The notes beneath the pieces were generated by a model. It searched no databases and had not been told where the DNA came from. It saw only the letters and a list, made by a program, of their open reading frames with translations. Position numbers and translations under genes: made by a program. Below are positions 1 to 55,016 of a DNA stretch of 64,000 nucleotides, in pieces (position 1 is the stretch's first letter; the number at the start of each line of letters is the position of its first letter). The DNA is taken from assembly GCA_016186325.1 (NCBI GenBank), contig JACPLW010000005.1, forward strand, positions 17,191 to 81,190. Direction: 5' to 3'. The stretch comes from Parcubacteria group bacterium. Lineage in GTDB: Bacteria > Patescibacteriota > Minisyncoccia > UBA10092.

Positions 1-1090
1 TCTGATCAATCAATGTGTTTTCCAAAGCTGAAAGGCGATCTTCAAAAACCAAAAATCCGGCGGTGGTAGTAGCATAAAATGGGAATGCTTCCGCCTTCGC
101 TAAAGCTTCGGCGGACAAGTCGGGGAGCACGTCAAGCGCTAGAGCATCTTCAAAAGTAGTAATTTTTGGAAATCCTTCTTTTGGCTGAATCAGTTTTGAC
201 TTACCGGATTCTAAAGTACCGACGGCCAGTTCTTGAATCGGTTTGGTTTTAAAAAGCGAAAGCATCCAATTGGAAAATTCCGGAATATCTTTAGGAAATC
301 CTTGCAGCATTTCGGTAACTAAAGCCGCTTGCCCTGAGTTTTGTCGAAGGGCCTGATACTTAGAAGTACTTAAACCGTTAAGTAAACTTAAACTCTTAAA
401 CGGCGAAATAATGCCGAAGACGGATGTGAGCGAGAAAATTAAAAAAACCGCAGTAAAAGCCGAAGCCAAAAATAGTTTAAGACTAGACCATGATTTTAAA
501 GATGCGAGAACGCCAAAATATCTGCTGGCTTTCTGAAATTCATAGACATCGTTAGATTTTATATTCTCTTTTACAGTTTCAAGAATTGCCAATTTTTCAT
601 CGGGTTTAAGTTCTCTTGAAGAAATTATGATTTCACGGCCTAGCGCAAAGTCTCTAAATTTCGAAATCTCTAAATCTCCAAATTTTGCTTGCCCTTCGTA
701 GCCCCGCAAAGCGGGACGAAGGAGGGAAATGTCTTCAACGCTCGCTTCAACTTTCTTTAATCTTTCAATGACTTCTTGCTTGTCCGCCGCAACTTTAGCA
801 AAAGTGGATTCAAGAACCAATCTGGTTTTAAGATTTTCAAACTCTGATTTTTCTTCTTCTTTAAGAGTTGCACTATCTGTTGCCTGCGTGAAACGCCCAA
901 CCGATCGTTGGTACTCTAGAAGCCACTCATTAGTTGTTACCCAATTCCGCCCAAGCTTAACTGCCCGAAGTTTCCCTCGGCGAATCAAAACGTTCACATA
1001 ATCCCGTGAAGTACTTAAAATCTTTCCGGCTTCGGAAAGCGGAATATAGTTTAAATTTTTATAATCTGAATTTTTTATTTCATTCTGCAT
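1..1090 (-). CDS. Excisionase-type helix-turn-helix domain protein, partial (C-terminus runs off the window start); paralog of the gene at 31167..31781
   Basis: Manual reverse-strand translation from the ATG at 1090 gives MQNEIKNSDYKNLNYIPLSEAGKILSTSRDYVNVLIRRGKLRAVKLGRNWVTTNEWLLEY. The N-terminal HTH aligns with the 31167..31781 protein. No stop before position 1, so the ORF track does not list it. Confidence 0.45.
   Translation of the reverse strand, partial: MQNEIKNSDYKNLNYIPLSEAGKILSTSRDYVNVLIRRGKLRAVKLGRNWVTTNEWLLEYQRSVGRFTQATDSATLKEEEKSEFENLKTRLVLESTFAKVAADKQEVIERLKKVEASVEDISLLRPALRGYEGQAKFGDLEISKFRDFALGREIIISSRELKPDEKLAILETVKENIKSNDVYEFQKASRYFGVLASLKSWSSLKLFLASAFTAVFLIFSLTSVFGIISPFKSLSLLNGLSTSKYQALRQNSGQAALVTEMLQGFPKDIPEFSNWMLSLFKTKPIQELAVGTLESGKSKLIQPKEGFPKITTFEDALALDVLPDLSAEALAKAEAFPFYATTTAGFLVFEDRLSALENTLIDQ
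694..722. repeat. GC-rich palindromic mini-element, in-frame in the HTH gene
   Basis: ccttcgtagccccgcaaagcgggacgaagg encodes ...LRPALRGYEG... on the minus strand. Confidence 0.5.
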
Positions 1091-1185
1091 TTTTCAAGTT
1101 TATATCGTATTTCAGATCATTTGATCTGATATCCTATCATGTTTAAATTATATCAAATTTACTTGCATATTTTGCTTATAAATAA

Positions 1186-1213
1186 ACAAAAATCCCGCTA
1201 TTCAGTGAATAGC
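1186..1213 (-). terminator. Candidate rho-independent terminator downstream of glmS
   Basis: On the minus strand, a 9-bp stem ccgctattc/gaatagcgg with 3-nt loop is followed by a T-rich run (gatttttgtttattt). Confidence 0.4.
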
Positions 1214-1286
1214 GGACTATTCTCCAATTATTGATATCCGACATCAATAATTGGATTGCCCTTATTAAGGCAAAAAACTTGCGATA

Positions 1287-3305
1287 TTACTCAACTGTTA
1301 CACTTTTTGCCAAATTACGCGGCTTATCCACGTCTATTCTTCTTAAGGTCCCCATATAATACGCGAATAACTGCAATGGAATAACCGCCAGAATCGGCGT
1401 CAGCATTTCTAAAGTTTTTGGTATATAGAGCCAATCATCCGCGATATGTTTAATATTTTTATTTCCTTCGGTTGTAATGGCGATGATTTTCCCACGCCTT
1501 GCTTTTATTTCTTCCATGTTAGAAGCCATCTTATCATATACGCTATCAACCCCGCCCCGCAGCTGCGGGGCGGGGTCAACGGGCGCGATAGCCACAACCG
1601 GGAAGTTTTCATCAATCATGGCAATCGGCCCGTGTTTCATTTCGCCGGCTCCGCATCCTTCGGCGTGAATATATGAAATCTCTTTAAGCTTTAGCGCGCC
1701 TTCTAATGCCGTGGGAAAATTATACTTTCTTCCGATATATAAAAAGTTTTTTGCACTGGAGTATTTTTCAGCAATCAATTTTATCTTATTTTTTTGTTTG
1801 AATATTTCCTTAATCAGCATCGGAAGTTTTTCAATTTCCAGAGTGATCTTTTTACCATCTTCAATCGATAAATTATTCCTTTGTCGGCCTAAGAATACCG
1901 CCAAAAGCGCTAAAATAATTAATTGGGAAGTGAATGCTTTTGTCGAAGCCACTCCTATTTCCGGCCCGGCATGATTATATATGCCCGCATCAGTTTCCCG
2001 CGCTATCGTTGAGCCGATAACGTTGACGATTCCGAGAGCAATTTGGTTATTTTTTAATTTTTTATCATTGATTTTGTTTCGATTTAGATTTTTTGATTCC
2101 GGCGCGGTTTTATCTTGAAAATTTTTCAAAACCGACAAAGTATCGGCTGTTTCCCCCGACTGGGAGATGGCTACCATGGCTAAATTTTGTCCGTCGGCTG
2201 GAGGATTCCTATAACGCAATTCAGAAGCCAGTTCCACTTCGCAAGGAATGCCACTCGCCTCTTCAATCATCAATTTTCCGATAATTCCGGCTAAATAAGC
2301 GGTTCCGCATCCGGTGACTATAATCCTGTTGATTTCTTTTAATTTATTTTTCACGCTTTCTAAACCTCCGAGTTTAACATTCCCATCTTCTTTGACCAAT
2401 CGGCCTCGAAAACTGTTTGAAATTGATTCCGGCTGCTCAAAAATTTCCTTCAACATAAAATGTTCGTAACCGCCTTTTTGTGCATCACTTAATTTCCATT
2501 TAAGTTGCTCCTTTCTTTTTGAAATATCTAAATATTTAAATCTTGAAACTTTCACCTTAGCGTTTTTTTCATCTTGACGATATATCTTATTGTGAGAGGT
2601 AGATAAAAAAGATATCGGATTTACATATGCTGAAATATCTACGATTTTTACGTTATACTTTGTTAAAACCGCAATCTCGCCGTCGTTCATATAAATAACG
2701 TCCTTAGTTCGACCGATAATTGCCGAAGCATCCGATGCTATCAAGTTTTCATCACTCCCAATTCCTATTATAAGAGGACTGGAATTGCGCGCGGTGATTA
2801 TTCTATCGGGCCAATCAGCCGCCATAACCGCCAAGCCATAAGTTCCATGAACCTGTTTGAGCGCCATTGCCACGGCTTGTTTAAAATCAACATATCGTAG
2901 ATTTTCTTCTATAATATGGGCTAAAACTTCAGTGTCGGTTTCAGATTTAAATATATGACCATGCCTAATTAAAACTCCTTTCAGTGATTTATAATTCTCA
3001 ATTATTCCATTGTGACAGACAAATATACGATTGGCGCAATCGGTATGGGGGTGAGCATTTTTCTCACTCGGCTCGCCGTGAGTTGCCCAGCGCGTATGCC
3101 CAATGCCAATATTTCCATTCCAACCTGATGAAATCTTTCTTTCTAATTCTATAATTCTGCCTTTGGCTTTTGCCAAATGAATTTTATCATCGTTAAAAAC
3201 GACAATGCCGGCTGAATCATAACCGCGATATTCAAGACGCTTTAAACCATCAATTAAAATAGGGACGGCTTTTTTATTACCTACATAACCGATAATGCCG
3301 CACAT
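1287..3305 (-). CDS. glmS: Glutamine--fructose-6-phosphate aminotransferase (isomerising)
   Basis: N-terminal MCGIIGY (class II glutamine amidotransferase Cys1) and two SIS domains. It carries two lineage-specific insertions relative to E. coli GlmS: an AT-rich K/N-rich segment and a GC-rich palindrome. Confidence 0.9.
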   Translation of the reverse strand: MCGIIGYVGNKKAVPILIDGLKRLEYRGYDSAGIVVFNDDKIHLAKAKGRIIELERKISSGWNGNIGIGHTRWATHGEPSEKNAHPHTDCANRIFVCHNGIIENYKSLKGVLIRHGHIFKSETDTEVLAHIIEENLRYVDFKQAVAMALKQVHGTYGLAVMAADWPDRIITARNSSPLIIGIGSDENLIASDASAIIGRTKDVIYMNDGEIAVLTKYNVKIVDISAYVNPISFLSTSHNKIYRQDEKNAKVKVSRFKYLDISKRKEQLKWKLSDAQKGGYEHFMLKEIFEQPESISNSFRGRLVKEDGNVKLGGLESVKNKLKEINRIIVTGCGTAYLAGIIGKLMIEEASGIPCEVELASELRYRNPPADGQNLAMVAISQSGETADTLSVLKNFQDKTAPESKNLNRNKINDKKLKNNQIALGIVNVIGSTIARETDAGIYNHAGPEIGVASTKAFTSQLIILALLAVFLGRQRNNLSIEDGKKITLEIEKLPMLIKEIFKQKNKIKLIAEKYSSAKNFLYIGRKYNFPTALEGALKLKEISYIHAEGCGAGEMKHGPIAMIDENFPVVAIAPVDPAPQLRGGVDSVYDKMASNMEEIKARRGKIIAITTEGNKNIKHIADDWLYIPKTLEMLTPILAVIPLQLFAYYMGTLRRIDVDKPRNLAKSVTVE
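1550..1575. repeat. Perfect 26-nt GC palindrome, in-frame in glmS, flanked by a TCAAC direct repeat
   Basis: ccccgccccgcagctgcggggcgggg encodes DPAPQLRGG, an insertion relative to E. coli GlmS (VVAPNNELLEK region). Confidence 0.6.
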
Positions 3306-3321
3306 GTTATTACATACAACA

Positions 3322-3374: not shown

Positions 3375-5819
3375 CTATATTACAACATTTATCAATCGTC
3401 CCGGCACAAATATGGTTTTTTTAATTTTAGCGCCACTAATGTATTTTTTAATAATTTCTCGCGATAAAACTATTTCTTCAACTTCAGGGCGTTTCAATTT
3501 TTTTGAAACGCGAACTTTATCGCGCATTTTGCCATTTACTTGAATTACTAGATCGTATTCCTCTACTTCAATAAATTTCGGGTCATATTTTGGCCATACT
3601 TCAAGATGAATCGATTTTCCCCGACGCTTTCGGTCGGAGCTCCGATCCCGAAGGGCGTCGGAGTTATTTCCTATTTTTTGCCAGAGTTCTTCCGTAAAGT
3701 GCGGCGCAAAAGGAGATAGAAGTTTCAAAAAAATTTCGGCCGTATTTTTTGTTATATCGGTTTTTTCAATCTCATTAAAAAGAATCATTAAAGCGCTGAT
3801 TGCCGTATTGAATCTGAAATGCTCTATATCATCCCCTACTTTCTTAATCGTCTGATGTAATAATTGCTGGTATTTGGTATTTGGTATTTGGTATTTGGTA
3901 TTTTGAGATTTAAAATTTAAAAATTTATTCCACACTCGATCTAAAAATCTCTTTATTCCTAAAATCCCGTTAGGATTCCACGGTCCGCCGTTGCTGTACT
4001 CGCCCATAAAACACAAATACATTCTAACCGTATCGGCGCCGTATTTTTTAACCAATTCGTCCGGGTCAACAACATTGCCGCGAGATTTAGACATCCTCTG
4101 TCCATCGCTCCCCAAAATATCGCCCTGATGACGCAAAGATACAAAGGGTTCGTCAAATTCAAGATAACCGGAATCCCGAAGAGCTTTAACAAAAAATCTT
4201 GAATAAAGGAGATGTAAAACCGCATGCTCAGCGCCTCCGACGTACATATCAACCGGCAGCCAGGCTTTTAATTTGTCTTTTGAAGCAAATTGTTTTTTGT
4301 TTTTCGGATCGGTGTAGCGCAGAAAGTACCACGAAGAATCCACAAACGTGTCCATTGTATCCGTCTCTCTGGTTGCCTTGCCCTTGCAATTCGGACACTT
4401 TACATTAACAAAACTTTTTACGCGCGCTAATGGCGACTTGCCTCCGGCGACCGGTTTAAAGTTTTTAAGCGGCGGTAGTTTTACCGGTAATTTATTTTCC
4501 TGAACCGGTACTATCCCGCATTTCTCGCAATAGATAATTGGAATAGGGGCGCCCCAATACCGCTGGCGGGAAATGACCCAGTCGCGCATTTTATATTGAA
4601 TTGAAAAACTACCAAGCCCCTTTTCCTTAAGTTCTTCGGTGATTTTTTTCCCTCCTTCGACAGACTCTAAACCTGTAAACTCGCCGGAATTTACCAATAA
4701 CCCGTCTTCTATTACATTTATAGTTGGCAAATTAAATTTTTTGGCAAATTCAAAGTCCCGCTCATCATGGGCAGGCACCGCCATAATGGCGCCCGTGCCA
4801 TAGTTCATTAAAACATAGTCCGATACCCAAATTGGAATTTCCTCCTGATTTGCCGGGTTAAAAGCAAAAGAGCCGGTAAAAACGCCTGTTTTTTCTTTCT
4901 CTAAGCTCGTTCTTTCGAGCTCTGTTTTAAGATGAGCATTCGCAATATAATGGCGGACATCTTCTTTTTGTTCCTTGGTTGTAACTTTTTCCACCAATGG
5001 ATGTTCCGGCGAAAGTACCATATAAGTAGCGCCAAAAAGCGTATCAGCCCGTGTTGTAAACACTGGAATTTCTAATTTCAAATTTCTAATTTCGAATTTA
5101 ATCAAAGTTCCTTCCGATTTCCCTATCCAGTTTTTCTGCATCAGTTTGGTGCGCTCCGGCCAATCCAACTTATCCAAATCTTTCAGTAATTCTTCCGCGT
5201 AATCCGTAATCTTTAACATCCATTGGTTAACTTCTTTTTGGATAACCAAAGTATCGGGGTGGCGCCAGCATCGGCCGTCAATAACCTGCTCGTTTGCTAA
5301 AATTACCTGATCTTTAGGACACCAGTTAGCTAATGCCTTTTTCTTGTAAGCAAGCCCCGCTTTATGCATTTGAAGAAACATCCACTGGGTCCATTTGTAG
5401 TATTTGGAATCAGCTGTAATCACCTCGCGCGAAAAGTCATAGATATTGCCCATTGACTTAAGCTGTTCTCTCATTGTTTTGATATTTTTATAAGTCCAAG
5501 TTTTTGGGTGAATTTTGCGCGCAATCGCCGCATTTTCGGCCGGAAGACCGAAAGCGTCAAAACCGATGGGGCTCAAAACATTGTAACCCTGCATTCTTTT
5601 AAGACGCGCGAAAACATTGGCCGGCGCATAATTATACCAATGCCCCATATGAAGATTGCCCGACGGATACGGAAACATCGTAAGATGGTAAAAATTTCTT
5701 CGCCCTCCGAAGCCTTTGGCGAAGGATGGGTTTTTGTCCTTAACTTTATAAATACCGGATTTTACCCAGTATTCTCTCCACTTTTTTTCTACTTTTATAG
5801 CGTTATACTTTTCAATCAT
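3375..5819 (-). CDS. leuS: Leucyl-tRNA synthetase
   Basis: Class I HMGH and KMSKS motifs (MSKSRGN) and overall LeuRS architecture. It contains an extra SFAKGFGGR segment before the MFPYPSG motif and an in-frame heptamer tandem repeat. Confidence 0.9.
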   Translation of the reverse strand: MIEKYNAIKVEKKWREYWVKSGIYKVKDKNPSFAKGFGGRRNFYHLTMFPYPSGNLHMGHWYNYAPANVFARLKRMQGYNVLSPIGFDAFGLPAENAAIARKIHPKTWTYKNIKTMREQLKSMGNIYDFSREVITADSKYYKWTQWMFLQMHKAGLAYKKKALANWCPKDQVILANEQVIDGRCWRHPDTLVIQKEVNQWMLKITDYAEELLKDLDKLDWPERTKLMQKNWIGKSEGTLIKFEIRNLKLEIPVFTTRADTLFGATYMVLSPEHPLVEKVTTKEQKEDVRHYIANAHLKTELERTSLEKEKTGVFTGSFAFNPANQEEIPIWVSDYVLMNYGTGAIMAVPAHDERDFEFAKKFNLPTINVIEDGLLVNSGEFTGLESVEGGKKITEELKEKGLGSFSIQYKMRDWVISRQRYWGAPIPIIYCEKCGIVPVQENKLPVKLPPLKNFKPVAGGKSPLARVKSFVNVKCPNCKGKATRETDTMDTFVDSSWYFLRYTDPKNKKQFASKDKLKAWLPVDMYVGGAEHAVLHLLYSRFFVKALRDSGYLEFDEPFVSLRHQGDILGSDGQRMSKSRGNVVDPDELVKKYGADTVRMYLCFMGEYSNGGPWNPNGILGIKRFLDRVWNKFLNFKSQNTKYQIPNTKYQQLLHQTIKKVGDDIEHFRFNTAISALMILFNEIEKTDITKNTAEIFLKLLSPFAPHFTEELWQKIGNNSDALRDRSSDRKRRGKSIHLEVWPKYDPKFIEVEEYDLVIQVNGKMRDKVRVSKKLKRPEVEEIVLSREIIKKYISGAKIKKTIFVPGRLINVVI
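3870..3904. repeat. Heptanucleotide tandem repeat (gtatttg)x4-5 inside leuS
   Basis: ggtatttggtatttggtatttggtatttggtatttt; encodes QNTKYQIPNTKYQ. Confidence 0.6.
5701..5730. repeat. GC-rich element in-frame in leuS (shares GAAGCCTTTGGC with the tatD copy)
   Basis: cgccctccgaagcctttggcgaaggatggg encodes the extra PSFAKGFGGR before MFPYPSG. Confidence 0.45.
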
Positions 5820-6673
5820 ATTTTAAATAAAGCTTTAGCATTATTATGAGTTTGGGTCGCGACTTTGTCAAAACTTAAGCCCTTCCATTCGGCAATTTTT
5901 CGCGCCACAAATTCAACGTAAGCCGGTTCGTTGCGTTTTCCTCGATGCGGCGCCGGCGCCGCAAATGGCGAATCGGTTTCAATAAGAATTTTATCAAGTG
6001 GGACATACTCCACCGCCTCTTTATATTCGTCGGCAAACGTTATTGGTCCGGCAAAAGAAATATAAAATCCTAAATCTATAAATTTTTCAGCGGTTTCTTT
6101 GGAACCGACAAAAAAATGGGCAACGCCGTTACCGCTTGAATCAGGAATTGTGAAGTATGAATTAAGAATATCAATCGCGTCTTCGTAAGCATCTTGACTT
6201 CCAGCCGATGGACGGCAATGTAAAATAATCGGCTTGTTTAATTCTTTCGCCAGTTCAATTTGTTTAATAAAAATATCTTTCTGTTGACTTTTAGTTCTTG
6301 TTTGCGACAATCCGCCTTTGCCAAAGGCTTCGGCGGATGCTCTTTTTTGAAACCGCTCGTTTCGCTCGCGGGCAAAAAAGGCATAATCCAGTCCGCACTC
6401 GCCTATAGCGACGACACTTTGATCTTTTGCCAATTCTCTATATTTACCAATATCAAAATTTTCTTCTAAATTATCATTCGGGTGTAAACCAATAGAAGCC
6501 CATAACAAATCCGGGTATTTTTTAGTTAGTTCAATGGCTTTCTTAGATTCCTCTAAATCAGTTCCAACGCTTATAGCTTTAATACCCGCTTCTTTTAGCC
6601 GGCCAATCATTTCCTCACGATCATCATCGTATTGAGGAAGATGAAGGTGACAATGAGAGTCAAATAATGTCAT
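5816..6673 (-). CDS. tatD: TatD-family metal-dependent deoxyribonuclease/hydrolase
   Basis: N-terminal DSHCHL metal-binding motif and TatD layout. An extra AEAFGKGG segment is encoded by a GC palindrome. Confidence 0.8.
   Translation of the reverse strand: MTLFDSHCHLHLPQYDDDREEMIGRLKEAGIKAISVGTDLEESKKAIELTKKYPDLLWASIGLHPNDNLEENFDIGKYRELAKDQSVVAIGECGLDYAFFARERNERFQKRASAEAFGKGGLSQTRTKSQQKDIFIKQIELAKELNKPIILHCRPSAGSQDAYEDAIDILNSYFTIPDSSGNGVAHFFVGSKETAEKFIDLGFYISFAGPITFADEYKEAVEYVPLDKILIETDSPFAAPAPHRGKRNEPAYVEFVARKIAEWKGLSFDKVATQTHNNAKALFKI
6312..6336. repeat. GC-rich nested palindrome in-frame in tatD
   Basis: ccgcctttgccaaaggcttcggcgg (outer ccgcc/ggcgg, inner ctttg/caaag) encodes AEAFGKGG. 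Confidence 0.5.
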
Positions 6674-12669: not shown

Positions 12670-13230
12670 TTAAACAATTTTAAAAAATTGCCGCAAGTCA
12701 CCCTCCCGCTTATCTATAGACTCTACAGTACAATAATTCACATAACGACTAATTGACAGAAACTCGCAAATAAAATCTATCTCGTTTTGACAATCATAAG
12801 GATAAACAAAAACGCTCTCTTGTAAATGATACAGCCCCAAATCTCTTAATTTATTGGATAGAGCGTTTCTTTCTTTTTTCTTTTTTTCCGGAATATCAAA
12901 AATTACCAATCGCCATTTTTTATCCCACTCTTTAGTATTTAATAACTCTATGTCATCATAATCAAATCGTTTTAATAAATTTCTGCCATTAGCGGTAATT
13001 TTTACATAAATATTATCGCCCTTTTCTACCAATTCTACCAATCTTTTATTGTTCAACCGTTTTACGGCATCATGAATACGTCGTTTATCAATTTTATCCC
13101 AATTTCTGCGCCAGCGCATTAATGGTTTTAAAAGTTGGGCAACATTGGGCGCGAATAGCGACGATAAAATTAATGTGCCGGAAGCGGCTATAAATAAAAC
13201 GTCTCTGGTTAACGATTTTTTGTGCAGCAT
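12670..13230 (-). CDS. PaaX-like transcriptional regulator homolog (N-terminal hydrophobic segment, winged helix, PaaX/Cas2-like fold domain)
   Basis: The motif WRLVIFDIPEKKKKERNALSNKLRDLGLYHLQESVFVYP matches the PaaX core (W..VVYD.PE..R..LR..L...GFG.LQ.SVW..P). A winged-helix-like segment precedes it. Paralog at 25847..26416. Confidence 0.45.
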   Translation of the reverse strand: MLHKKSLTRDVLFIAASGTLILSSLFAPNVAQLLKPLMRWRRNWDKIDKRRIHDAVKRLNNKRLVELVEKGDNIYVKITANGRNLLKRFDYDDIELLNTKEWDKKWRLVIFDIPEKKKKERNALSNKLRDLGLYHLQESVFVYPYDCQNEIDFICEFLSISRYVNYCTVESIDKREGDLRQFFKIV

Positions 13231-20632: not shown

Positions 20633-22372
20633 TTACATCTTATCAGGAGCTTTTATCCCCATCAAGTTCAAAGCGTTTCCTAAAACGATTTTAGTTGCCG
20701 TAACCAAAGCCAATCGCGCGGAGGTTAACTTTTTGTCTTCTGTAATCACTCTTTCTTTTTCATAGAAATTGTGGAACTCCCGCGCCAGTTCCAGAGCATA
20801 GCGCGGCAAGCGATGGACTTCGTAATTTATCGCGATATCACTTAAAACCTCGGGAAACTCGGTGAGTTTCCTAATTAAATCAAATTCGGCATTTGTTTTT
20901 AATGCACTAAATTCAGAGCTTAAGACCTCGGCTTTAGAGACCTTTGCTTTGCGCAAATTAGAGACCTTTGCTTTGCGCAAAATTGAGGAAAGCCGCGCGT
21001 ACGCGTACTGCACATAATAAATCGGATTTTTTTGCGAACGTTCTTTGGCTAGCGATAAATCAAAATCCATGTGAGTATCGGATGAATACATCAAAAAGAA
21101 AAATCTCACGGCATCAAGCCCAATCTCACCAACCAGCTCGTCTAAAGTAACAAAAATTCCGGCTCGCTTTGAAACCTTTGCTTTTTTACCGCCGGAAACG
21201 AGGCGGACAAACTGAATCAGCACTATTTTTAAGCGCTCCGAATTAATCCCCAATGCTTTTAAAGCCCCCATCAAGCGCGGAATGTCTCCATGATGGTCGG
21301 CTCCCCAGATATTTATCGCTTTATTAAATTTTCTTACTTCAAATTTATTTAAATGATAAAGAATGTCAGACATAAAGTATGTTTCGTCGCCATTACTTTT
21401 TATCAAAACCCGGTCTTCGGTATCGCCTAATTCCGACGTTTTCATCCAAGTGGCGCCATCTTTTTCATAAATTAAATCTTTGCGCATTAAATCTTCCATT
21501 ACTTTTTCATACTGTCCCCCCTTATAAAGGGACTTTTCAGAAAACCAAACATCAAAATTTATTCCGAGCTTTTTTATAACCGGCTTTATATGCGTATTTA
21601 AAATTAAATCAACCGATGCCTGCCCGGCTTCTTCAATGCTAAAATTTTTGTCTATCTGTTTTGCCAAGTCGTTAATATAATCTCCTTTATATAAATTTTC
21701 TAATTCGGTTTTTTCTAAACTCAAATTCTCGCCCTGCGCTAGCTTGATTGATCTTCCAAGAGCAAGAATTTGGCCACCCCTATCATTTATATAAAACTCG
21801 CGAGTAATGTTATACCCTTGTGTTTCCAAAATATTAGCCAGCACATCACCATAAAACCCTCCTCGGCCATTAGCCATTGTTAAGGGCCCGGTGGGATTGG
21901 CAGAAATAAATTCAACTTGAACTTTGTAATTTTTACCGACATCAGAATTTCCGTATTTATTTTTTTCTTTCAGAACTTCCTTAAGTTGATGACGGAGACA
22001 TTCGGGCGACAGAAAAAAATTAATAAAACCGTTCACGGCATCAATTTTTGAAAATTCTTTCTTGTCCGCCGAAACTTTCTTGCCCGCCACAGCTTTAGCG
22101 TAGGAGGGAGTGAAGGCGGATATTTTTTGGCTATTTAACTTTTTAACTAATTCTTCGGCAATTATTTGCGGTGATTTTTTTCCGCCTGAGGCGAGATCTC
22201 GCCCCTTTTGGGCGGATAAAATTTTGGCAAGCAAAAAAGCGACGTTTGACGAATAGTCGCCATGTTCTCTATTCTCGGTAACTTTAACTAAAACCTCTCC
22301 CCTAAACTCCGGAGCGATTTTTCGAATAATGTCGTTTAGATAGGTTTTTATAAGCTCTTTCATTCCATACAT
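20633..22372 (-). CDS. argS: Arginyl-tRNA synthetase
   Basis: Class I ArgRS motifs (FISANPTGPLTMANGRGG); carries a 24-nt in-frame tandem duplication (LRKAKVSN twice). Confidence 0.9.
   Translation of the reverse strand: MYGMKELIKTYLNDIIRKIAPEFRGEVLVKVTENREHGDYSSNVAFLLAKILSAQKGRDLASGGKKSPQIIAEELVKKLNSQKISAFTPSYAKAVAGKKVSADKKEFSKIDAVNGFINFFLSPECLRHQLKEVLKEKNKYGNSDVGKNYKVQVEFISANPTGPLTMANGRGGFYGDVLANILETQGYNITREFYINDRGGQILALGRSIKLAQGENLSLEKTELENLYKGDYINDLAKQIDKNFSIEEAGQASVDLILNTHIKPVIKKLGINFDVWFSEKSLYKGGQYEKVMEDLMRKDLIYEKDGATWMKTSELGDTEDRVLIKSNGDETYFMSDILYHLNKFEVRKFNKAINIWGADHHGDIPRLMGALKALGINSERLKIVLIQFVRLVSGGKKAKVSKRAGIFVTLDELVGEIGLDAVRFFFLMYSSDTHMDFDLSLAKERSQKNPIYYVQYAYARLSSILRKAKVSNLRKAKVSKAEVLSSEFSALKTNAEFDLIRKLTEFPEVLSDIAINYEVHRLPRYALELAREFHNFYEKERVITEDKKLTSARLALVTATKIVLGNALNLMGIKAPDKM
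20937..20985. repeat. 24-nt tandem duplication with a palindromic TTTGCGCAAA core, in-frame in argS
   Basis: agagacctttgctttgcgcaaatt twice, giving LRKAKVSN LRKAKVSK. Confidence 0.6.
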
Positions 22373-22888: not shown

Positions 22889-23275
22889 AACTTGAAAATT
22901 AAATATGCAGGACGAGGATATCTCGTAACCTTGAAAATCCGTCCCGCAGTTGCGGGATGCGACAATCCCCGAGATCCAGCAAATAACTGGCAAAACAAAT
23001 TTAACTCCTGCTTTAGCTTTTGCTTAAGTAGGTTTTACCCCGCGAAGCTTTAGCGTAGTGGGGCATCGGTCGCCTGACGCCCAGTAGGACGATACCGGTG
23101 TCAACAATTGGGCTCTAACCTGAAAATTCTTCGGTTCGGGTTGAACTAAAGAAGAAATTGGGAACCTTCCATTTTGACTGTTTCAAGGAGGATTTTCAAA
23201 AAATTCAAACAGCCTACGCCTGTAGAAATATTTAATTAAAAATTCTAGATGCGAGTTCAACTCTCGCCACTTCCA
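22868..23275 (+). ncRNA. ssrA: tmRNA (ssrA), one-piece; 5' end overlaps the last 7 codons of smpB; CCA not encoded
   Basis: 5' GGGAGTG-ACGGGC-TTCGATAG resembles the tmRNA 5' acceptor strand plus TTCGA D-analog. 3' end GCGAG-TTCAACT-CTCGC (T-arm, T-loop identical to E. coli tmRNA), then CACTTCC (pairs with GGGAGTG) and discriminator A. Internal tag-like frame ...ggc aaa aca aat tta act cct gct tta gct ttt gct taa gives GKTNLTPALAFA followed by a stop. Confidence 0.7.
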
Positions 23276-23448
23276 TTCGACTCGTCTCTCGCTAACGCTC
23301 GAGACTCGCTCATGGCAAGCCACTCGTTGTAATTAACTTGAGTCGCTCACTATTGAACAAGTCGAATGTCCCGAGCGTAGTCGAGGGACACAATAAAATA
23401 TCAGATAATTATCTGGTATTTTATTTTTATAGATGCTATATAATTTTT

Positions 23449-23715
23449 ATGCATTACGTTTATATGATAAAAAATTCTTCTGGCAAATTGTATGTTGGTG
23501 TAACAGAAGATTTAAATAAAAGACTTTACTACCACAACACTAAACAAGGTGCTAATTTTACTAAATATAAATCTAAATTTGAAATAGTTTTTGAAGAAAA
23601 ATATCCCACTCTTGCAGAAGCACGAAAACGTGAGGCTCAAATTAAGAAATGGCGCAGAGAAAAGAAAAAAATACTAATAAAAAGATTCATTGCCGGATTG
23701 TCTACTAAATTATAA
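23449..23715 (+). CDS. GIY-YIG nuclease superfamily protein (small, stand-alone)
   Basis: MHYVYMIKNSSGKLYVGVTEDLNKRLYYHN matches the GIY-YIG core (YVY...GKLYVG...L..RL..H). The true start is probably this internal Met rather than the ORF-track start at 23338. Confidence 0.6.
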   Translation: MHYVYMIKNSSGKLYVGVTEDLNKRLYYHNTKQGANFTKYKSKFEIVFEEKYPTLAEARKREAQIKKWRREKKKILIKRFIAGLSTKL

Positions 23716-23756
23716 AAAACGGAAAACCCGCCGTTCACTTTTGTTACTAGATGGGG

Positions 23757-23785
23757 TTGACTTATGCATAAAACCCGTGTATATT
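23757..23785 (+). promoter_or_regulatory. Sigma70-like promoter for the infC-rpmI-rplT operon
   Basis: TTGACT, 17-nt spacer, TATATT, about 40 nt upstream of the infC start. Confidence 0.45.
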
Positions 23786-23825
23786 GGATTTTATCAGAAA
23801 CTTAAATATAAATTTCTAACGGGAC

Positions 23826-30157: not shown

Positions 30158-30439
30158 AACTTAAAAAAACAACGAAAATCAATTTGGCCGCGACTCTCAC
30201 TGACAATCGGACTGTGAATAAGAAGAATCATAAGCATTAATCACCAAGGTCGTTGTGACCATAAGAAACAACTAAATCATTAAGTCACATCGCGCTACAT
30301 TTGCCTTAATGAGGCAAAATCCTGCGTTATGTGTAAATAAAATAAAAATCTAACCAGGCCTTTATTTTATAAGTTAGAATATTCCACCGGCGAGGCCTTG
30401 ACACGATTTTTTGATTTTAAAGTAAATCCACCACTTGTG

Positions 30440-30930: not shown

Positions 30931-31166
30931 ATAAATATATTCTGACGATAGAAGTACGTGAGGAAAATGATTTATTTGTTATTTCTTTGCTATTTCCAAG
31001 AATGATATAGGCGGGCGAAAAAATATTAAATTCGGCTATAATAAACGTCGCGACATGATAACTTCTATCCGCCCGGCTGGCAGATAAAATTTAGCCATGG
31101 TAGCCGCTTAGATGGCAACACATGGCCTAATGACGGAGTAGAAATGTGGAAAGCAGTCACTTAAAT

Positions 31167-37112: not shown

Positions 37113-37244
37113 CCCCCACCCTTTCTAAATAAATTTTAAACGCGACCTTTGTTTGAGGTTTGTAATAATTATCATTAAATTTAATATATTTTTTCTTAGT
37201 CATAGTTTCAAATTAAAAAAGCGAAATTTAGAAAGGGTGGGGGA

Positions 37245-42548: not shown

Positions 42549-44882
42549 ATGAATCTCTCGCCATCATTCAAAAACAGGTTAACGTCGCGGGCGGAAAATG
42601 TCCTAAAATTCGCTGAAAATTTGGCTAATAGCAGCTCAAATTTTGAGCAGAAAAAAGCCAGGCTTTCAGTCGGACATCTTTTAGAAGCAATTTTTACGAT
42701 TCGCGGCAGTTTAGCTTACAATATTTTACAAAATCACAATCTTAAATTGAGTGATTTTTCTTTCCCTTCAAGAAATGACTTGCCACTAAAAATGGCCCTA
42801 AAAAGCGCCCTGGAAGAAGCGATGAAATATAATTACAGCCATATTGGTACCGAGCACTTGCTTTGGGGGGCTTTAAAAGAAATGAGGGACTGTGTTAAAA
42901 CAGAGAGACTTCAAATGGTGGTAAACACCGAAAACCACCTAAAAGAAATTTTTTCGGTTTCAGGAAGAACAAGTAATTTAAAAAACGCGGATCTTCCAAA
43001 ATCTAGGACATACGGCCAGAACATTTTTGACAAACTGATTATTGACGCTTATAAAAACTTGGTAAATCTGCCCGACGTTTTGAATAACGACCATGCAAAA
43101 GAACCGTCATCGGCTCTAGAAACTTTCGGCACGGAACTGGTTGAAGCGGCAAAAAAAGGAACAATTGATCCGACGATCGGCCGGGAAAAAGAAATCAAAA
43201 GAATCGTAACCATAATGAGCCGGCACAACAAAAATAACCCGATGCTTATCGGAGAACCGGGCGTCGGGAAAACTGCTTTAGTTTACGGCTTGGCTCAAAA
43301 AATCGCGACTTCTGACGTGCCGCCATTTTTATTAAAAAAAAGTATTTATCAGCTTGATCTCGGGGCCATTGTCGCCGGCACTACTTTCAGGGGCGAATTT
43401 GAAGCCAGAATAAAAGACATTCTCTACGAGGCCGAAGAAAAGAATGCCGTTATTTTTATTGACGAGTTTCATACTGTAATCGGCGCCGGCGCCGCCCAAG
43501 GTTCGCTTGATGTCGCCAATATAATCAAACCCCTGCTGTCTATGCGTAAAATCCAAATCATCGGCGCCACTACCATAGGCGAATGGCGAAAACACATTGA
43601 AAAAGATGCCGCTCTTGAAAGACGTTTTCAGCCGATAACAATAGATGAACCAACAGAAACCCAAACAGAAGAAATCCTTTTAGGGCTTCTTCCTGTCTTA
43701 GAAAAACATCACAATTTAAAAATTACGCCCGAAGCCATAAAATCCGCAGTGGTTTTGGCAACAAGATATTTAAACGAAAGGTTTTTGCCCGACAAGGCAA
43801 TCGACCTTCTTGATGAAGCCGCCGCTCTAAAATCGCTGGAAAATAACCTGCCGGCTGTTTTAAAAGGCAACGATGTCGCTAGGGCGCTGAATATCATCAC
43901 GGGAATCCCGATTAAAAACCTAGCCGGCCCAAAAAACGACTTAACGGCGACGCCCGACTTGACTAAAATCGAAAAGAAACTGGGCCAAAAAATCATCGGG
44001 CAAAAAGAAGGGGTAAGAATAATCGCGGAAACCCTAAGGCGCGCCAATGCCGGCTTAAATAACAAAGAAAGGCCGCTCGGATCATTCCTCTTCATCGGCC
44101 CGACCGGAGTTGGCAAAACCGAATTAGCTAAAATTTTACATCAAGAAATCTCGCCCTCAACTCAAATAATCAAATTTGACATGTCCGAATTTTTGGAAGC
44201 CCATTCAATCGCCAAGCTTATCGGATCGCCGCCGGGTTACATCGGCTATGAAGAGCCGGGCAATCTCACGGAAAAAATAAGAAGAAATCCTTACGCCGTA
44301 GTTCTTTTTGACGAAATTGAAAAGGCTCATCCTCAAATTGCCAATATTTTGCTCCAGATTATTGAAGAAGGAAATTTAACCGATAATCACGGTCGCCTAA
44401 CCAGCTTTAAAAATGCCATTATAATATTGACATCCAATCTCGGGTCAAAAGAATTCAGCCGCGAAGCCAAGCGATTCGGCTTTATTTCAAATCACAAAAA
44501 ATCTTTGCGCGATAAGTATAGCGAAATAAAAGAAGCCGGCTTGAAAGCGCTGCGCCGGCATTTTGTTCCAGAACTATTATCGCGCCTTGACGAAATTATT
44601 GTTTTTAATCCTTTAGGGCCAAGCGAGGTGAGAAAAATCGCCATGCTGGAAATGAAAAAAATGACCGAAGAAGCTCCCGATTATAAGATCACTGTAAAAA
44701 ACGGCGTTTTTGACTTTATAATTACTAAAGCCGGATTCCACCAAAACGGCGCCAGAGAAATAAAGCGCTTGATAAATAAAACGATTGCCAATCCTCTGGC
44801 AGAATTTCTTCTTAATAAAAAAAATCATGGCAGAAAAAACCTGGACATTAACGTCAAAAATAACAAAGTTGTTATTTCATGA
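42549..44882 (+). CDS. Clp/Hsp100 AAA+ chaperone ATPase (ClpC/ClpA-like, two AAA modules)
   Basis: Clp N-domain repeats; Walker A1 GEPGVGKTA and Walker A2 GPTGVGKTE; no long ClpB-type middle domain. Confidence 0.8.
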   Translation: MNLSPSFKNRLTSRAENVLKFAENLANSSSNFEQKKARLSVGHLLEAIFTIRGSLAYNILQNHNLKLSDFSFPSRNDLPLKMALKSALEEAMKYNYSHIGTEHLLWGALKEMRDCVKTERLQMVVNTENHLKEIFSVSGRTSNLKNADLPKSRTYGQNIFDKLIIDAYKNLVNLPDVLNNDHAKEPSSALETFGTELVEAAKKGTIDPTIGREKEIKRIVTIMSRHNKNNPMLIGEPGVGKTALVYGLAQKIATSDVPPFLLKKSIYQLDLGAIVAGTTFRGEFEARIKDILYEAEEKNAVIFIDEFHTVIGAGAAQGSLDVANIIKPLLSMRKIQIIGATTIGEWRKHIEKDAALERRFQPITIDEPTETQTEEILLGLLPVLEKHHNLKITPEAIKSAVVLATRYLNERFLPDKAIDLLDEAAALKSLENNLPAVLKGNDVARALNIITGIPIKNLAGPKNDLTATPDLTKIEKKLGQKIIGQKEGVRIIAETLRRANAGLNNKERPLGSFLFIGPTGVGKTELAKILHQEISPSTQIIKFDMSEFLEAHSIAKLIGSPPGYIGYEEPGNLTEKIRRNPYAVVLFDEIEKAHPQIANILLQIIEEGNLTDNHGRLTSFKNAIIILTSNLGSKEFSREAKRFGFISNHKKSLRDKYSEIKEAGLKALRRHFVPELLSRLDEIIVFNPLGPSEVRKIAMLEMKKMTEEAPDYKITVKNGVFDFIITKAGFHQNGAREIKRLINKTIANPLAEFLLNKKNHGRKNLDINVKNNKVVIS

Positions 44883-45682
44883 ACTTGAAAAATCTTCTGC
44901 TTGATCTGATTTTCCCTCGCCATTGCCTTGGTTGTAGAGTTGAACTCACGTCAAAACAGGCCTCGCTTATTTGCGCGGCCTGTTTTGACAAAATCATTTT
45001 AAATTCCGCCCTAAAATGCCACATATGCGGCTTAAGAATCGGCCGAATGGAGGTACACAAAAACTGCCGGAAAAAAACGAATATAAAAACTATATTTTCG
45101 GCCGGCCATTATAGCGATCCGATTTTAAGAGAAGCAATCCATGTTTTTAAATACCGCTCTATAGAATCTCTTAAAGAAATTCTGGCGGAATTAATGGTTA
45201 AATACATTAAAAAAGAGCGTCTTCTAAGCGAGTTCACCGATTCGATTTTGGTGCCGATTCCACTTACTCTAAGACGAAGAGTGATCCGCGGCTTTAACCA
45301 AAGCGAACTTCTGGCTAACGAGCTCTCAAAATTCCTTAACTGTCCGGTTGTGAACATGCTAACGCGAAAAAAATTTACGGCGCCGCAAGCCGACATTTCG
45401 GATTGGCAAAAAAGAAAAGAAAATGTTTCCGGCGCTTTTGCCTTATCCCCCCGCCCAGATTTTTCTGGGCGAGGCTCGCCCACTTTGTGGGCGGCATCTT
45501 ATCCACCCGCCAAAGGCGAGGCTCGCCCCGCTGCTGCGGGGCGGCAAAACTATCGATGTCCGACATCAATAATTTTAGTTGACGATGTTTCAACCTCCGG
45601 CGCCACTTTGGAAGAAGCAGCGTTGATCTTGAAAAAAGCCGGAGTAAAAGAAATTTACGGGTTAGTCGTCGCTAGGGGCTAG
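44879..45682 (+). CDS. comF: Competence protein ComF (phosphoribosyltransferase domain) carrying a ~100-nt GC-rich in-frame insertion
   Basis: N-terminal Cys4 (CLGC...CAAC); C-terminal PRTase motif IILVDDVSTSGAT. About 30 extra GC-encoded residues (SPRPDFSGRGSPTLWAASYPPAKGEARPAAAGRQ) sit between the GAF and ILVDDV motifs. Confidence 0.75.
   Translation: MNLKNLLLDLIFPRHCLGCRVELTSKQASLICAACFDKIILNSALKCHICGLRIGRMEVHKNCRKKTNIKTIFSAGHYSDPILREAIHVFKYRSIESLKEILAELMVKYIKKERLLSEFTDSILVPIPLTLRRRVIRGFNQSELLANELSKFLNCPVVNMLTRKKFTAPQADISDWQKRKENVSGAFALSPRPDFSGRGSPTLWAASYPPAKGEARPAAAGRQNYRCPTSIILVDDVSTSGATLEEAALILKKAGVKEIYGLVVARG
45446..45546. repeat. Composite ~100-nt GC-rich multi-hairpin element in-frame in comF
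   Basis: gcccagatttttctgggc; gggcgaggctcgccc (twice); ccccgctgctgcgggg. About 75% GC against a roughly 35% GC background. Confidence 0.6.
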
Positions 45683-52540: not shown

Positions 52541-53443
52541 ATGCAAAACATTTTAATAATCGGCGGTTCGTATTTTGTCGGGCCAATTATTATGGATAAA
52601 CTGTTAAAACAAGGGTTTGAACTTACTGTTTTTAATCGTGGCCGGGTAAAAACCGAGTATCCGGCCGGCGTTAACTTCATCCGCGGCGACAGAAACAACG
52701 GTTTCAATATAACCGAACACTTTGACGCAGTTATAGACATGTGTTCTTATACCGGAAAGCAAACACGGCAAGCAATTAAAGAATTAAAATTTGATCTCTT
52801 CATTCATATGGGAACCGCCGCCGCTTATAAAAAAACTGTCCCCTTGCGGGGGATCTCCCGAATGGAGAAAACTCTTCTGCTTACCGAAGATTCACCTCTT
52901 GGCGATTGGCCGCTTTGGGGCGATTATAATAAAGGCAAAGTGGAATGCGAAAAAGTTCTTAAAGAAAGCGGAATAAAATACGCCGCGATGCGTCCGGTTT
53001 ACATTCTCGGGCCACATAATTATCTTCCGAGAGAAAGCTTTATTTATTCAAAAATAGGAAAAAGCGAACCGATAATCATCCCCGGAAACGGCCACGCTTT
53101 AATACAACTTGTTTGGGCAAACGACGTCGCAGAATCAATAATAATGCTTGTCGAAAAAAAACTTGCGGGCGCCTTTAATTGCGCCGGAGATGAAACAATA
53201 ACGCTCGTTGATTTGGTTAAGATGATGGGGAAAATCGCCGGTCAAGAACCGGTTTTACGATTTAATCCGCTTACCGATGGAGAAAATTTTAACGATGCAG
53301 AATTTCCTTTTGCCAACGAGAATTTTATCGTGTCAAATGAAAAATTAAAAAGCGTCGATATGGTTTTTGCTCCCTTAGAAAATTTTTTGCGGGAAGATTA
53401 TGAAAACTACTACAAAACCGCTTTAATTGACATATTTGCTTAA
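52541..53443 (+). CDS. NAD-dependent epimerase/dehydratase (extended SDR)
   Basis: Rossmann GGSYFVG N-terminus; carries a short GC-rich palindrome (tccccttgcggggga). Confidence 0.8.
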   Translation: MQNILIIGGSYFVGPIIMDKLLKQGFELTVFNRGRVKTEYPAGVNFIRGDRNNGFNITEHFDAVIDMCSYTGKQTRQAIKELKFDLFIHMGTAAAYKKTVPLRGISRMEKTLLLTEDSPLGDWPLWGDYNKGKVECEKVLKESGIKYAAMRPVYILGPHNYLPRESFIYSKIGKSEPIIIPGNGHALIQLVWANDVAESIIMLVEKKLAGAFNCAGDETITLVDLVKMMGKIAGQEPVLRFNPLTDGENFNDAEFPFANENFIVSNEKLKSVDMVFAPLENFLREDYENYYKTALIDIFA

Positions 53444-53934: not shown

Positions 53935-53946
53935 AACCATTAAAAA

Positions 53947-53990
53947 ATCGCCTATGCCTATTTACGGGTATAGGCGATCAACTTTTTAAT
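53947..53990 (+). terminator. Rho-independent terminator after the lipoprotein gene
   Basis: atcgcctat ... ataggcgat stem followed by a T-run. Confidence 0.45.
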
Positions 53991-54014
53991 AAAGCAATAT
54001 ATCCAAAAAAGATT

Positions 54015-55016
54015 ATGGAAACAACAAAAATCAGCGTGGTAATAGCAACATACAACCGCGATCATCTCGTAACCAGAGCGCTTGCGGCTTTGGCCAGGCA
54101 AAATTTACCGAAAGGTTTTTTTGAAATTATCGTTGTGAACGACGGTTCTACCGATGGAACTGAAGAAGAAGTTAAAAACTTCATTAAAAAAAACACATCA
54201 TCCTACATTACTTTAATAACCCTTGAAAAAAACCTCGGCTCTTCGTTTGCCAGAAACACGGGAATACTCTCCTCAAAAGGAGAATTCATTGCCATAACCG
54301 ATGACGACTGCATTGTCCCGTCCGACTGGCTTTCTCAATTCTTGAAAGCGTTTGAGACAAACCCGGAAATCATTGCCGTCGGCGGATTTAAAAAACCGCA
54401 TCGCGATAATGGATTAAAACCGAGCCGCTACGACATTTTTATGTTCTGGCGCCGGCTTCCATTTATGAAAACAGAATGCAAATCTGTTGAAATGAACCCA
54501 TTTAACAACTGCGGAGATACGGCAAATGTGTGCTACCGGAAACAAGCGCTTGAGGCCGTCGGCGGCTTTAATAACGACATAAGAACATTTAACGACTGGG
54601 AACTAAAAATCCGGCTCCATCAGCTTGGTTCACCTCTTCTCTATCGTCCAATATTTATTCCGCATGAAGCTGATTTAAAATTCGGTAAATTTCTTAAATA
54701 TTGGCTTCGGCTGGGATATGATTGTTTTCTTATTTCAAAAATCCATCCGGAGCACCCCGTTTTCAATACTTCGCTGCGAACTACTTTGAGACGAATAATA
54801 GCCGGCGTATCACGTATTATAAAAGCTCCGAGTGATGAAATTTTTTCCCCCTACGGGGGATCCCCCGCCCGCTTCGCCGGAGCTTCAGCGAGGCGAGAAG
54901 GGGGACAAAAAAAAATTTCACAAACCCTATTTTTTATTTTTCTTGAAATAATTCTGAACACATGCCTGTGGCTTGGAAAATATATAACGCCAAAAATTAA
55001 AAAAGCTCTTTTATAA
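54015..55016 (+). CDS. Family 2 glycosyltransferase with GC-rich element near the 3' end
   Basis: ISVVIATYNRDH...EIIVVNDGSTDGT GT-A motifs and a DDD-like motif (ITDDDC). Confidence 0.75.
   Translation: METTKISVVIATYNRDHLVTRALAALARQNLPKGFFEIIVVNDGSTDGTEEEVKNFIKKNTSSYITLITLEKNLGSSFARNTGILSSKGEFIAITDDDCIVPSDWLSQFLKAFETNPEIIAVGGFKKPHRDNGLKPSRYDIFMFWRRLPFMKTECKSVEMNPFNNCGDTANVCYRKQALEAVGGFNNDIRTFNDWELKIRLHQLGSPLLYRPIFIPHEADLKFGKFLKYWLRLGYDCFLISKIHPEHPVFNTSLRTTLRRIIAGVSRIIKAPSDEIFSPYGGSPARFAGASARREGGQKKISQTLFFIFLEIILNTCLWLGKYITPKIKKALL
54846..54906. repeat. GC-rich hairpin element in-frame near the 3' end of the GT2 gene
   Basis: tccccctacggggga followed by cccccgcccgcttcgccggagcttcagcgaggcgagaaggggg. 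Confidence 0.5.

Follow-up and report, generated by a model that had tools for sequence, protein, structure and literature searches.

We analysed a 64-kb stretch of DNA (64,000 nucleotides (nt), hereafter the window) from a Parcubacteria group bacterium (GenBank assembly GCA_016186325.1, contig JACPLW010000005.1). The window is densely coding, averages ~40% GC over its whole length, and carries glmS, leuS, tatD, metG, argS, ileS, type IV pilus genes, comF, PolX, one tRNA and the transfer-messenger RNA (tmRNA). Judged on LeuS, the closest species representative is a metagenome-assembled genome of Candidatus Azambacteria (70% identity); the source organism is an Azambacteria-like lineage of Patescibacteria. 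A preliminary description had reported short GC-rich palindromes inside housekeeping genes and read them as a single family of insertions resembling Rickettsia palindromic elements (RPEs). Every sequence it cited was found where it had been placed, and its reading of the palindromes as in-frame, presence/absence-polymorphic and RPE-like is supported by our analysis. The palindromic mini-elements do not, however, form one family: they are several related subfamilies, alike in being built of single or double hairpins but without one common consensus. We consider it probable that they are non-autonomous selfish palindromic repeats of the general kind that includes repetitive extragenic palindromes (REPs) and their REPIN form, RPEs, and small dispersed repeats (SDRs).

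For comparison we used a relative locus from GCA_964553885.1 (L081), three loci from GCA_030650355.1 (L084, L087 and L210), and several Logan, ENA and JGI contigs. GCA_030650355.1 keeps the gene order of the window over most of its length, and its protein identity exceeds 90% in the pilus region. Lineage-specific inserts were catalogued by two unbiased indel surveys of the window against its relatives, and GC-rich, strongly folding inserts stood out as a separate class among the lineage-specific indels. The surveys also brought to light the argS insertion. The elements in protein-coding genes of the window are as follows.

693 to 722, minus strand: hairpin in an HTH_17-type (helix-turn-helix) gene; 30-nt CCTTCGTAGCCCCGCAAAGCGGGACGAAGG, with an unpaired (G)TAG beside a CCCGC/GCGGG stem.
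1546 to 1580, minus strand: glmS insertion; 28-nt perfect palindrome at 1549-1576, with repeats TCAAC at 1546-1550 and 1576-1580.
3618 to 3662, minus strand: leuS insertion 2; 45-nt double hairpin encoding the 15 amino acids (aa) SDALRDRSSDRKRRG; not in the preliminary description.
5698 to 5732, minus strand: leuS insertion 1; +7 aa NPSFAKG (extra residues at 5712-5732), hairpin CTTCGCC...GGCGAAG.
6290 to 6382, minus strand: tatD insertions; block 1 hairpin TCCGCCTTTGCCAAAGGCTTCGGCGGA at 6311-6337, block 2 at 6353-6382 encoding AFFARERNER.
22061 to 22120, minus strand: argS insertion; 60 nt starting with TCCGCC and ending with GGCGGA, SAFTPSYAKAVAGKKVSADK; likewise new.
45451 to 45495, plus strand: comF module 1; 45-nt double hairpin encoding (R)PDFSGRGSPTLWAA.
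45506 to 45544, plus strand: comF modules 2 and 3; CCCGCCAAAGGCGAGGCTCGCC, shared with L086.
52838 to 52867, plus strand: epimerase insertion; 30-nt double hairpin TCCCC-TTGCG-GGGGA / TCTCC-CGAAT-GGAGA encoding VPLRGISRME.
54846 to 54905, plus strand: insertion in a family 2 glycosyltransferase (GT2) gene; 60 nt, TCCCCC-TAC-GGGGGA followed by TCCCCC-[33 nt]-GGGGGA, SPYGGSPARFAGASARREGG.

Alignment to close relatives established insertion with the reading frame preserved in glmS, leuS, tatD, comF, the epimerase and GT2, six of the seven genes for which it had been proposed. In the seventh, the HTH_17-type gene, the hairpin sits in a stretch that does not align to the L081 orthologue, and insertion cannot be proved because the surrounding sequence is poorly conserved; this hairpin has a 15-mer in common with 30474-30488 and a near-identical architecture at a metagenome locus (L132). 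The predicted polymorphism was borne out by empty sites in close relatives, with exact-boundary presence/absence for glmS, the epimerase, comF, GT2, argS, the nitroreductase gene of L084 and leuS of L210. The relatives also carry private inserts at other sites, in metG, leuS and glmS of L081, in tatD of L001, and in the L084 and L210 genes just named. The L084 nitroreductase gene contains a 30-nt palindrome with a duplicated ATAAAT(C), and the corresponding window site is empty; leuS of L210 contains a 30-nt double hairpin without any duplication, at a site that is empty in both the window and L081.

The glmS insertion is the most fully documented. Its net length (1551-1580) is exactly 30 nt, encoding the 10 aa VDPAPQLRGG, which are lacking in 20 of 24 aligned homologues and in E. 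coli GlmS (4amv); at this position three aligned homologues, and one found separately, have another insertion instead, of 8 aa. The glmS of L081 is an exact empty site with a single GTTGA (GCGCCCGTTGA|TAGCG), and the window has GTTGA, the 25-nt palindrome CCCCGCCCCGCAGCTGCGGGGCGGG, and GTTGA again, so that the flanking 5-bp repeat, proposed beforehand as a target-site duplication, is indeed present once in the empty site and twice in the filled one. In L082 a different palindrome occupies the identical nucleotide site (GTTGA, CCCCGACGGTACCGTCGGG, GTTGA), and L083 carries a decayed copy of the L082 palindrome. An AlphaFold model of moderate quality (predicted local distance difference test score 71), which served solely for loop placement, puts the insert in a predicted loop between the strand at 570-573 and the helix at 589-602. 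In different genomes another inserted peptide, SAKGGSASGG, occurs at three different GlmS positions.

A separate, AT-rich family of in-frame inserts was seen at 2529-2594 in glmS (alignment columns ~290-330) and at ~655-690 in the HTH_17-type gene. Their peptides follow the pattern ..(I/V)S(R/K)F(K/Q/R)(D/Y/N)(L/F)(D/N)IS.. and are encoded by an AT-rich palindrome, TCAAGATTTAAATATCTTGA in glmS, and they vary among relatives; a GC double hairpin sometimes interrupts them.

In leuS, insertion 1 is lacking in L001, L004, L081, L083 and L210, and insertion 2 in L081, L083 and L210. A peptide nearly identical to that of insertion 2 (NSDAREGRSPDRKRRG, family E) is inserted in the PolX proteins P0332 and P0349. 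Insertion 1 has the 14-mer GCCAAAGGCTTCGG in common with tatD, in the opposite orientation. The tatD gene has 12 aa (6290-6325) and 10 aa (6353-6382) more than that of L081, and these residues are also extra relative to L001. A DNA alignment shows that the argS insertion is lacking in the 80%-identical L087 orthologue. In the GT2 gene a clean 20-aa gap separates the window protein from P0361 (68% identity) and from five further homologues, and the 10 extra residues of the epimerase are lacking in L084; the epimerase insertion was also retrieved by a scan for architecture (see below). Three palindromes did not qualify. The hairpin at 27045-27062 in PolX is unproven as an insertion, adding only 2 aa in a variable loop, and the GC palindromes at 5946-5963 (tatD) and 43481-43494 (a clpB-like gene) were rejected, since conserved residues are encoded there and they are therefore native. 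LeuS also contains tandem heptapeptide repeats of the IPNTKYQ type (AATACCAAATACCAAAT...; window ~3870-3900), which recur at L081:12067-12130 at the start of a relative's HTH protein and represent a further type of short in-frame repeat.

In comF, the segment 45451-45544 adds 28 aa relative to an 87%-identical relative. L085 has module 1 at the corresponding site with 44 of 45 positions identical, although the remainder of the gene is 70% identical (P ~3e-6), and the module is lacking in L084 and L086; we conclude that the element is much younger than its host gene. In module 3, the hairpin CGCC-ACA-GGCG has grown by 9 nt, in the window only, into CGCCCCGC-TGCT-GCGGGGCG. An alternative is a drive through DNA uptake or recombination, in which a fragment would be taken up or recombined more readily when it bears a hairpin, and insertion alleles would then spread between related lineages by homologous recombination at one site. 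Bacteria of this group are presumed to be naturally competent, the window contains type IV pilus and ComF genes, the same comF element occupies the same site at 69% protein identity yet is lacking in the 87%-identical relative, and the strong frame bias described below is like the one shown by uptake sequences, such as those of Haemophilus (USS), where they fall within genes. However, the flanks of module 1 are 76% and 64% identical, no closer than the rest of the gene, uptake sequences normally build up by substitution and not by insertion, and copies at unrelated sites would have no explanation. We therefore regard a drive of this kind as very unlikely.

Several other short peptides are inserted repeatedly in this clade: LPTGDVPEGH (in the ComF zinc ribbon), FRSPTS..PEVGL, NLPLIPSLVRRGKG (at N-termini) and PAFAKALA, together with QGKPGG, which is inserted in PolX in 18 sequences. 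On their sequences, these recurrent peptides suggest that there may be further element families. Ser, Pro, Gly and Arg are over-represented in the peptides inserted in comF, PolX and glmS homologues.

We asked how far these palindromes exceed chance. CCCGC-N2-6-GCGGG occurs 9 times in the window against 0.30 expected, and none of 100 shuffles reached 9; of the sequence modules proposed earlier, this core is thus strongly enriched and GAGCGAG weakly so (10 versus 4). The window has 18 perfect GC-rich hairpins whose stems reach 6 bp or more, where simulations give ~8, and the excess is confined to loci from the Candidate Phyla Radiation (CPR), the non-CPR control loci having none. GC-rich islands themselves were ruled out as the signal, as there are 81 such stretches against ~107 simulated; without enrichment of GC-rich stretches, the signal lies in palindromy and shared words, not in GC content. 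Folding energies of most elements beat those of shuffled sequences (glmS, z -6.3 as a DNA fold; whole comF block, -6.0; HTH_17-type gene, -3.9; epimerase and leuS insertion 2, -3.1 each; tatD block 1, -2.9; GT2, -2.4). Folding was not significant for leuS insertion 1 (-1.3), for tatD block 2, which is unstructured, or for the second of two tmRNA insertions.

The elements are not restricted to protein-coding genes. The following features lie in the tmRNA and in non-coding DNA.

22941 to 22958, plus strand: hairpin in the pseudoknot-1 loop of the tmRNA; GTCCCGCAGTTGCGGGAT.
23031 to 23062, plus strand: tmRNA insertion 2; 32 nt, GGTTTTACCCCGCGAAGCTTTAGCGTAGTGGG, lacking in the L087 tmRNA.
30459 to 30495: island insertion; 30-nt, window-specific in a three-way alignment with L087 and L088, carrying GCCCCGCTTTGCGGGGC.
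30570 to 30945: variable island hairpins; modules of GCATGGT plus a hairpin at 30676-30727 and 30846-30869, and GCATCCCGCAACTGCGGGGA at 30894-30913.
37113 to 37243: element of 131 nt resembling a MITE (miniature inverted-repeat transposable element), with perfect 18-nt terminal inverted repeats CCCCCACCCTTTCTAAAT.

Apart from two places, the tmRNAs of the window and L087 are 97-98% identical. At the first, the window hairpin lies within an extension of 31 nt that replaces just 2 nt of the Rfam consensus, and L087 has a different hairpin, GGTCGCCTTGGGCGAC, at the same site; an exact 18-nt copy of the window hairpin recurs at 30894-30911. The second place is insertion 2. Downstream, a ~360-nt segment between the tmRNA and infC (23279-23830) is lacking in the near-identical L087. 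It contains a small free-standing GIY-YIG nuclease gene (open reading frame (ORF) 23449-23715) with GC hairpins upstream and, going by sequence, looks like a mobile nuclease gene; this ORF is the only nuclease candidate near the elements.

The cluster of palindromes at 30.4-30.9 kb, described earlier as a dense accumulation of the same elements, does contain hairpins, but it belongs to a ~1-kb non-coding region (30158-31166, between an HTH_17 gene and an amino-acid permease gene) that is conserved in position and largely in sequence (L087:4109-5077, L088:5909-6734, and partly L082:2415-2600) and is not a mere dump of elements. L088 and L082 have different hairpins at the positions homologous to those of the window. 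The region folds strongly (z -7 for 30570-30765), its repeated modules of GCATGGT plus a variable hairpin lie inside co-varying outer stems, and a search of the island (30.1-31.2 kb) against Rfam returned no match at E up to 1. This region may code for one or more structured RNAs. Within it, 20 nt at 31086-31105 (L087:4164-4183, L088:5964-5983) are an exact copy of the glmS sense strand (2169-2188, codons QNLAMVA), so that a minus-strand RNA would pair with glmS mRNA; the copy is kept in L087 and L088, where one C-to-T change preserves a G-U pair with their own glmS. It could be a trans-acting antisense regulator of glmS.

The 131-nt element lies between two pilus genes that are 7 nt apart in L084, where it is lacking. 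By its terminal repeats and length, which fall within the 15-30 bp and 70-300 bp typical of such elements, and in being non-coding and polymorphic, it is a bona fide MITE, whereas the short elements fall outside these limits. The arm CCCCCCACCTTCCCG of the L084 palindrome resembles the MITE terminus CCCCCACCCTTTC, and fusion of MITE terminal repeats could have given the long palindromes that are flanked by 5-7-bp duplications.

Two further observations concern the window at large. Paralogous genes with a PaaX_M / Cas2-like domain sit between housekeeping genes at varying positions in the window (12670-13230 and 25847-26416) and its relatives (L081:8993-9547, L084:13358-13909). Cumulative GC skew has its minimum and turns at ~61.4-62.0 kb, at a divergent gene pair, which may mark a replication origin or terminus.

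The short elements measure 20-60 nt (7-20 aa), with G/C stems of 5-12 bp and loops of 2-5 nt, and one hairpin can be nested in the loop of another. We distinguish single long CCCGC/GCGGG palindromes, 30-nt double hairpins of the form TCCSCC-N3-GGSGGA, 45-nt double hairpins, and at least one 131-nt MITE. What recurs is a hairpin of 15 nt with a 5-6-bp stem of the TCCSCC/GGSGGA type and a 3-5-nt loop, usually doubled to 30 nt, as in the epimerase gene, GT2 (with a nested insert), glmS of L081 and L083, and leuS of L210. A structural scan for double hairpins found 8 in 122 kb of close relatives and 2 in the window, against 0 simulated in each case; in non-CPR controls it found 5 against ~5 simulated, with no consensus.

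To look beyond the close relatives, we searched JGI metagenomes for exact matches to TTTTCCGCCAAAGGCGGATC. At least 120 contigs contain it, nearly all with different flanks, and CCCGC hairpins are ~15-fold enriched in these contigs. Among the matches listed, the contigs are distant from the window (best protein identity 30-56%), and the element is a 30-nt unit with sharp boundaries, TCCGCC-AAA-GGCGGA followed by TC(C/A)GCC-NNN-GGC(G/T)GA. Its canonical copies lie in long ORFs in 53 of 81 listed cases, where the reading frame gives S-A-K/R-G-G-S-A-S/F-G-G for 48 of the 53; the 30-nt consensus has no stop codon in any of the six frames. A phage origin of TTTTCCGCCAAAGGCGGATC was considered and set aside, since cultured phage genomes gave no match and IMG/VR a single one. 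In six contigs (L120, L130, L139, L163, L190 and L201) the double hairpin is found at one common loop (..YEVEF|SAKGGSASGG|..LPSGIYFY..) in domains that resemble C-terminal secretion-sorting domains, which suggests that the element may be present outside Patescibacteria as well, or in an expanded gene family.

The 30-nt double hairpin is preceded by a T-run and followed by an A-run on either strand, and it is therefore unable to act as an intrinsic terminator. Intrinsic termination was rejected more generally for the intragenic copies, which have no downstream T-run; some CCCGC hairpins at metagenome loci do resemble terminators. The strong preference for one reading frame, the location of the inserts in loops, and a context that precludes terminator action are what one would also see if the modules were kept for the benefit of the host, as Gly/Pro/Arg/Ser-rich loops or as RNA hairpins in mRNA stability or regulation, and so were ordinary lineage-specific loop expansions. 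Such an origin is extremely unlikely: genes for unrelated proteins, the tmRNA and intergenic regions all contain the same DNA, either orientation and different frames are used, the closest relatives of each host gene lack the insert, and purifying selection acting on a selfish insert predicts an equal frame bias.

How, then, do the elements spread? Copies have been inserted at new sites, both within this Azambacteria-like lineage and across many other uncultured genomes, and under the reading that we prefer they are selfish palindromic repeats. Because they occur in tmRNA and non-coding DNA, in both orientations and in different frames, they act on nucleic acid and not on protein. With ~90% of these genomes probably coding, most insertions would fall in genes, and selection would retain only those that preserve the frame, in tolerant loops and in the Gly/Ser frame. 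Survival is likely because the 30-nt unit is stop-free in six frames and would be translated into a flexible, Gly/Ser-rich peptide. Target duplication, suggested earlier for the glmS palindrome, can be demonstrated for the long single palindromes, with two cases (5 nt in glmS, 6-7 nt in the L084 nitroreductase gene), and not to the 30-nt double hairpins, for which one clean case (L210 leuS) shows precise, duplication-free insertion between a T-rich and an A-rich flank. Slippage between short flanking repeats would excise hairpins precisely, and one hairpin may be replaceable by another at a site; precise loss and same-site replacement would thus account for the patchy distribution. Movement would be in trans, and a HUH/RAYT-style activity (RAYT, REP-associated tyrosine transposase) on folded, single-stranded hairpins would fit the anatomy best.

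Several results weigh against this proposal. A scan of 37 window ORFs found no transposase-like domain, and a tblastn search with IS200 TnpA, a probe that worked on a control locus, had no match in the window or in the element-bearing contigs within 2.2 Mb of loci, the retrieved TTTTCCGCCAAAGGCGGATC contigs amounting to 0.77 Mb. Copies of any exact subfamily in the window are few (2-5). Target duplications amount to two cases of unequal length, with none for double hairpins, and over 101 double-hairpin copies among the matches listed there was no consistent flanking repeat relative to shuffled pairs. Moreover, the same nucleotide site has been reused by two glmS palindromes, by two tmRNA hairpins and in comF, which random transposition does not predict, and stems appear to have grown in situ in comF module 3 and in an island hairpin of L087.

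Many of these features would be expected if the elements spread without any transposase, a stalled nascent strand switching through microhomology to a GC hairpin elsewhere as template, copying it, and returning. On this view a genome poor in repair would produce the elements as a by-product of its DNA metabolism, they would not be dedicated mobile DNA, and one would expect templated insertions flanked by repeats, conversion of hairpins at the same site, and longer stems. The hairpin swap in an otherwise 97-98% identical tmRNA, the two different glmS palindromes with identical flanks, the grown stems in comF and the L087 island, the variable length of the flanking repeats (5 versus 6-7 nt), and the lack of a transposase in the window and in the element-bearing contigs searched are all in accord with template switching; as read from the sequences, the insertion sites examined are also loops of pre-existing small inverted repeats. 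Nonetheless, the boundaries of the 30-nt unit are sharp and identical in more than 100 unrelated contexts with flanking microhomology not above background, near-identical 45-nt elements occur in very divergent genomes, and the origin of GC-rich donors in AT-rich genomes is left unexplained. On balance, we consider template switching rather unlikely as the source of the elements, and we favour selfish repeats.

A more specific proposal, which we make tentatively, is that the 15+15-nt double hairpins may be an unrecognised class of minimal mobile elements, widespread in Patescibacteria and possibly present in other uncultured lineages. They would be coding-neutral, by which we mean that the 30-nt unit is stop-free in six frames, encodes a Gly/Ser linker in either orientation and has no predicted terminator activity; they would move by a structure-specific activity, encoded by the host or by an element, and not by a classical transposase, and this activity could also exchange hairpin cassettes at a given site, even in tmRNA. 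If such a class exists, much of the lineage-specific insertion by which CPR proteins and RNAs stand out would come from it. The tmRNA hairpin swap and the reuse of single sites point to a mechanism of mobilisation or conversion that has not yet been described. More broadly, if the selfish-repeat reading is correct, in-frame palindromic colonisation of essential genes, familiar in Rickettsia and in a few bacteria rich in REPs, extends to the CPR, whose genomes are considered streamlined and poor in mobile DNA. The elements would be a concrete source of the many short insertions that are so far unexplained in proteins and structured RNAs of the CPR. Such inserts skew alignments, phylogenies and structure predictions, and provide sharp presence/absence markers for strain tracking, and the 30-nt unit is a natural experiment on the peptide linkers that proteins tolerate.

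Among known systems, REPs and REPINs are GC-rich stem-loops of 20-40 nt, often paired, whose families differ by compensating base changes in the stem and have loops that vary or are nested (PMC3733652; PMC3116915), and some intragenic copies of REPs tagged with GTAG or CGTC encode 20-30 extra residues (PMC3733652). The elements described here are likewise multicopy stem-loops, many in the 20-40-nt range, and one copy in the window (693-722) has an unpaired (G)TAG; a TAG preceded by G is unpaired in this copy and in L132, and the YGTC before some CCCGC stems is part of the stem. They differ from REPs in that most lack a GTAG/CGTC tag (those in glmS, comF, the epimerase and GT2, and the 30-nt double hairpins, are untagged), in being mostly intragenic where REPs are mainly extragenic, and in having paired hairpins that are directly abutting 15+15-nt units. 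No RAYT (Y1/HUH) gene was found in the 64-kb window or in the element-bearing contigs within the 2.2 Mb searched, and Patescibacteria are not among the eight phyla reported. We do not assign the elements to the GTAG/CGTC REPs, because most copies are untagged.

The likeness to RPEs holds for behaviour and not for the elements themselves. RPE-1 is ~100-150 nt long and encodes 30-50 aa, and the present elements are much smaller (20-60 nt). Both systems place in-frame palindromes in housekeeping genes of reduced genomes at tolerant protein surfaces (for RPEs, Ogata et al. 2000 and 2002, as cited in PMC3733652). Classical RPE-1 is called a 'longer palindromic insertion' in that paper, and RPE-4 and RPE-6 are treated as CGTC REPs, with 8-9-bp stems that start with an A/T pair, 4-5-nt loops and a CCA tail (PMC3733652). 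The present elements have no CCA tail and do not match the consensus described there; it is on this difference in size and described consensus that we do not count them as RPEs. The hosts differ as well, RPE hosts being AT-rich alphaproteobacterial endosymbionts whereas here the hosts are CPR bacteria, in which the tmRNA too has been invaded.

Nesting and insertion in RNA genes also recall the SDRs of heterocystous cyanobacteria, which Elhai et al. reportedly described in 2008 as palindromic mobile repeats of ~21-27 nt, nested, and found in-frame in genes and in RNA genes; SDRs are not known to have an associated transposase. The sequences and the host phylum differ from those of the SDRs. GC-rich single or double hairpins invading AT-rich, compact genomes, including coding and rRNA genes, are likewise familiar from mitochondria, as GC clusters and as the double-hairpin elements (DHEs) of Allomyces. 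Sponge mitochondria contain repetitive hairpin-forming elements (RHEs; PMC2800124). These are organellar, and the likeness is one of analogy only, with no sign of common descent. Most elements in the window are far below the MITE size of 70-300 bp, and the double hairpins lack the target duplication. Our literature searches returned no description of palindromic or in-frame repeats in CPR/Patescibacteria, nor of the element sequence. The elements look like an undescribed relative of the REP and RPE selfish repeats.

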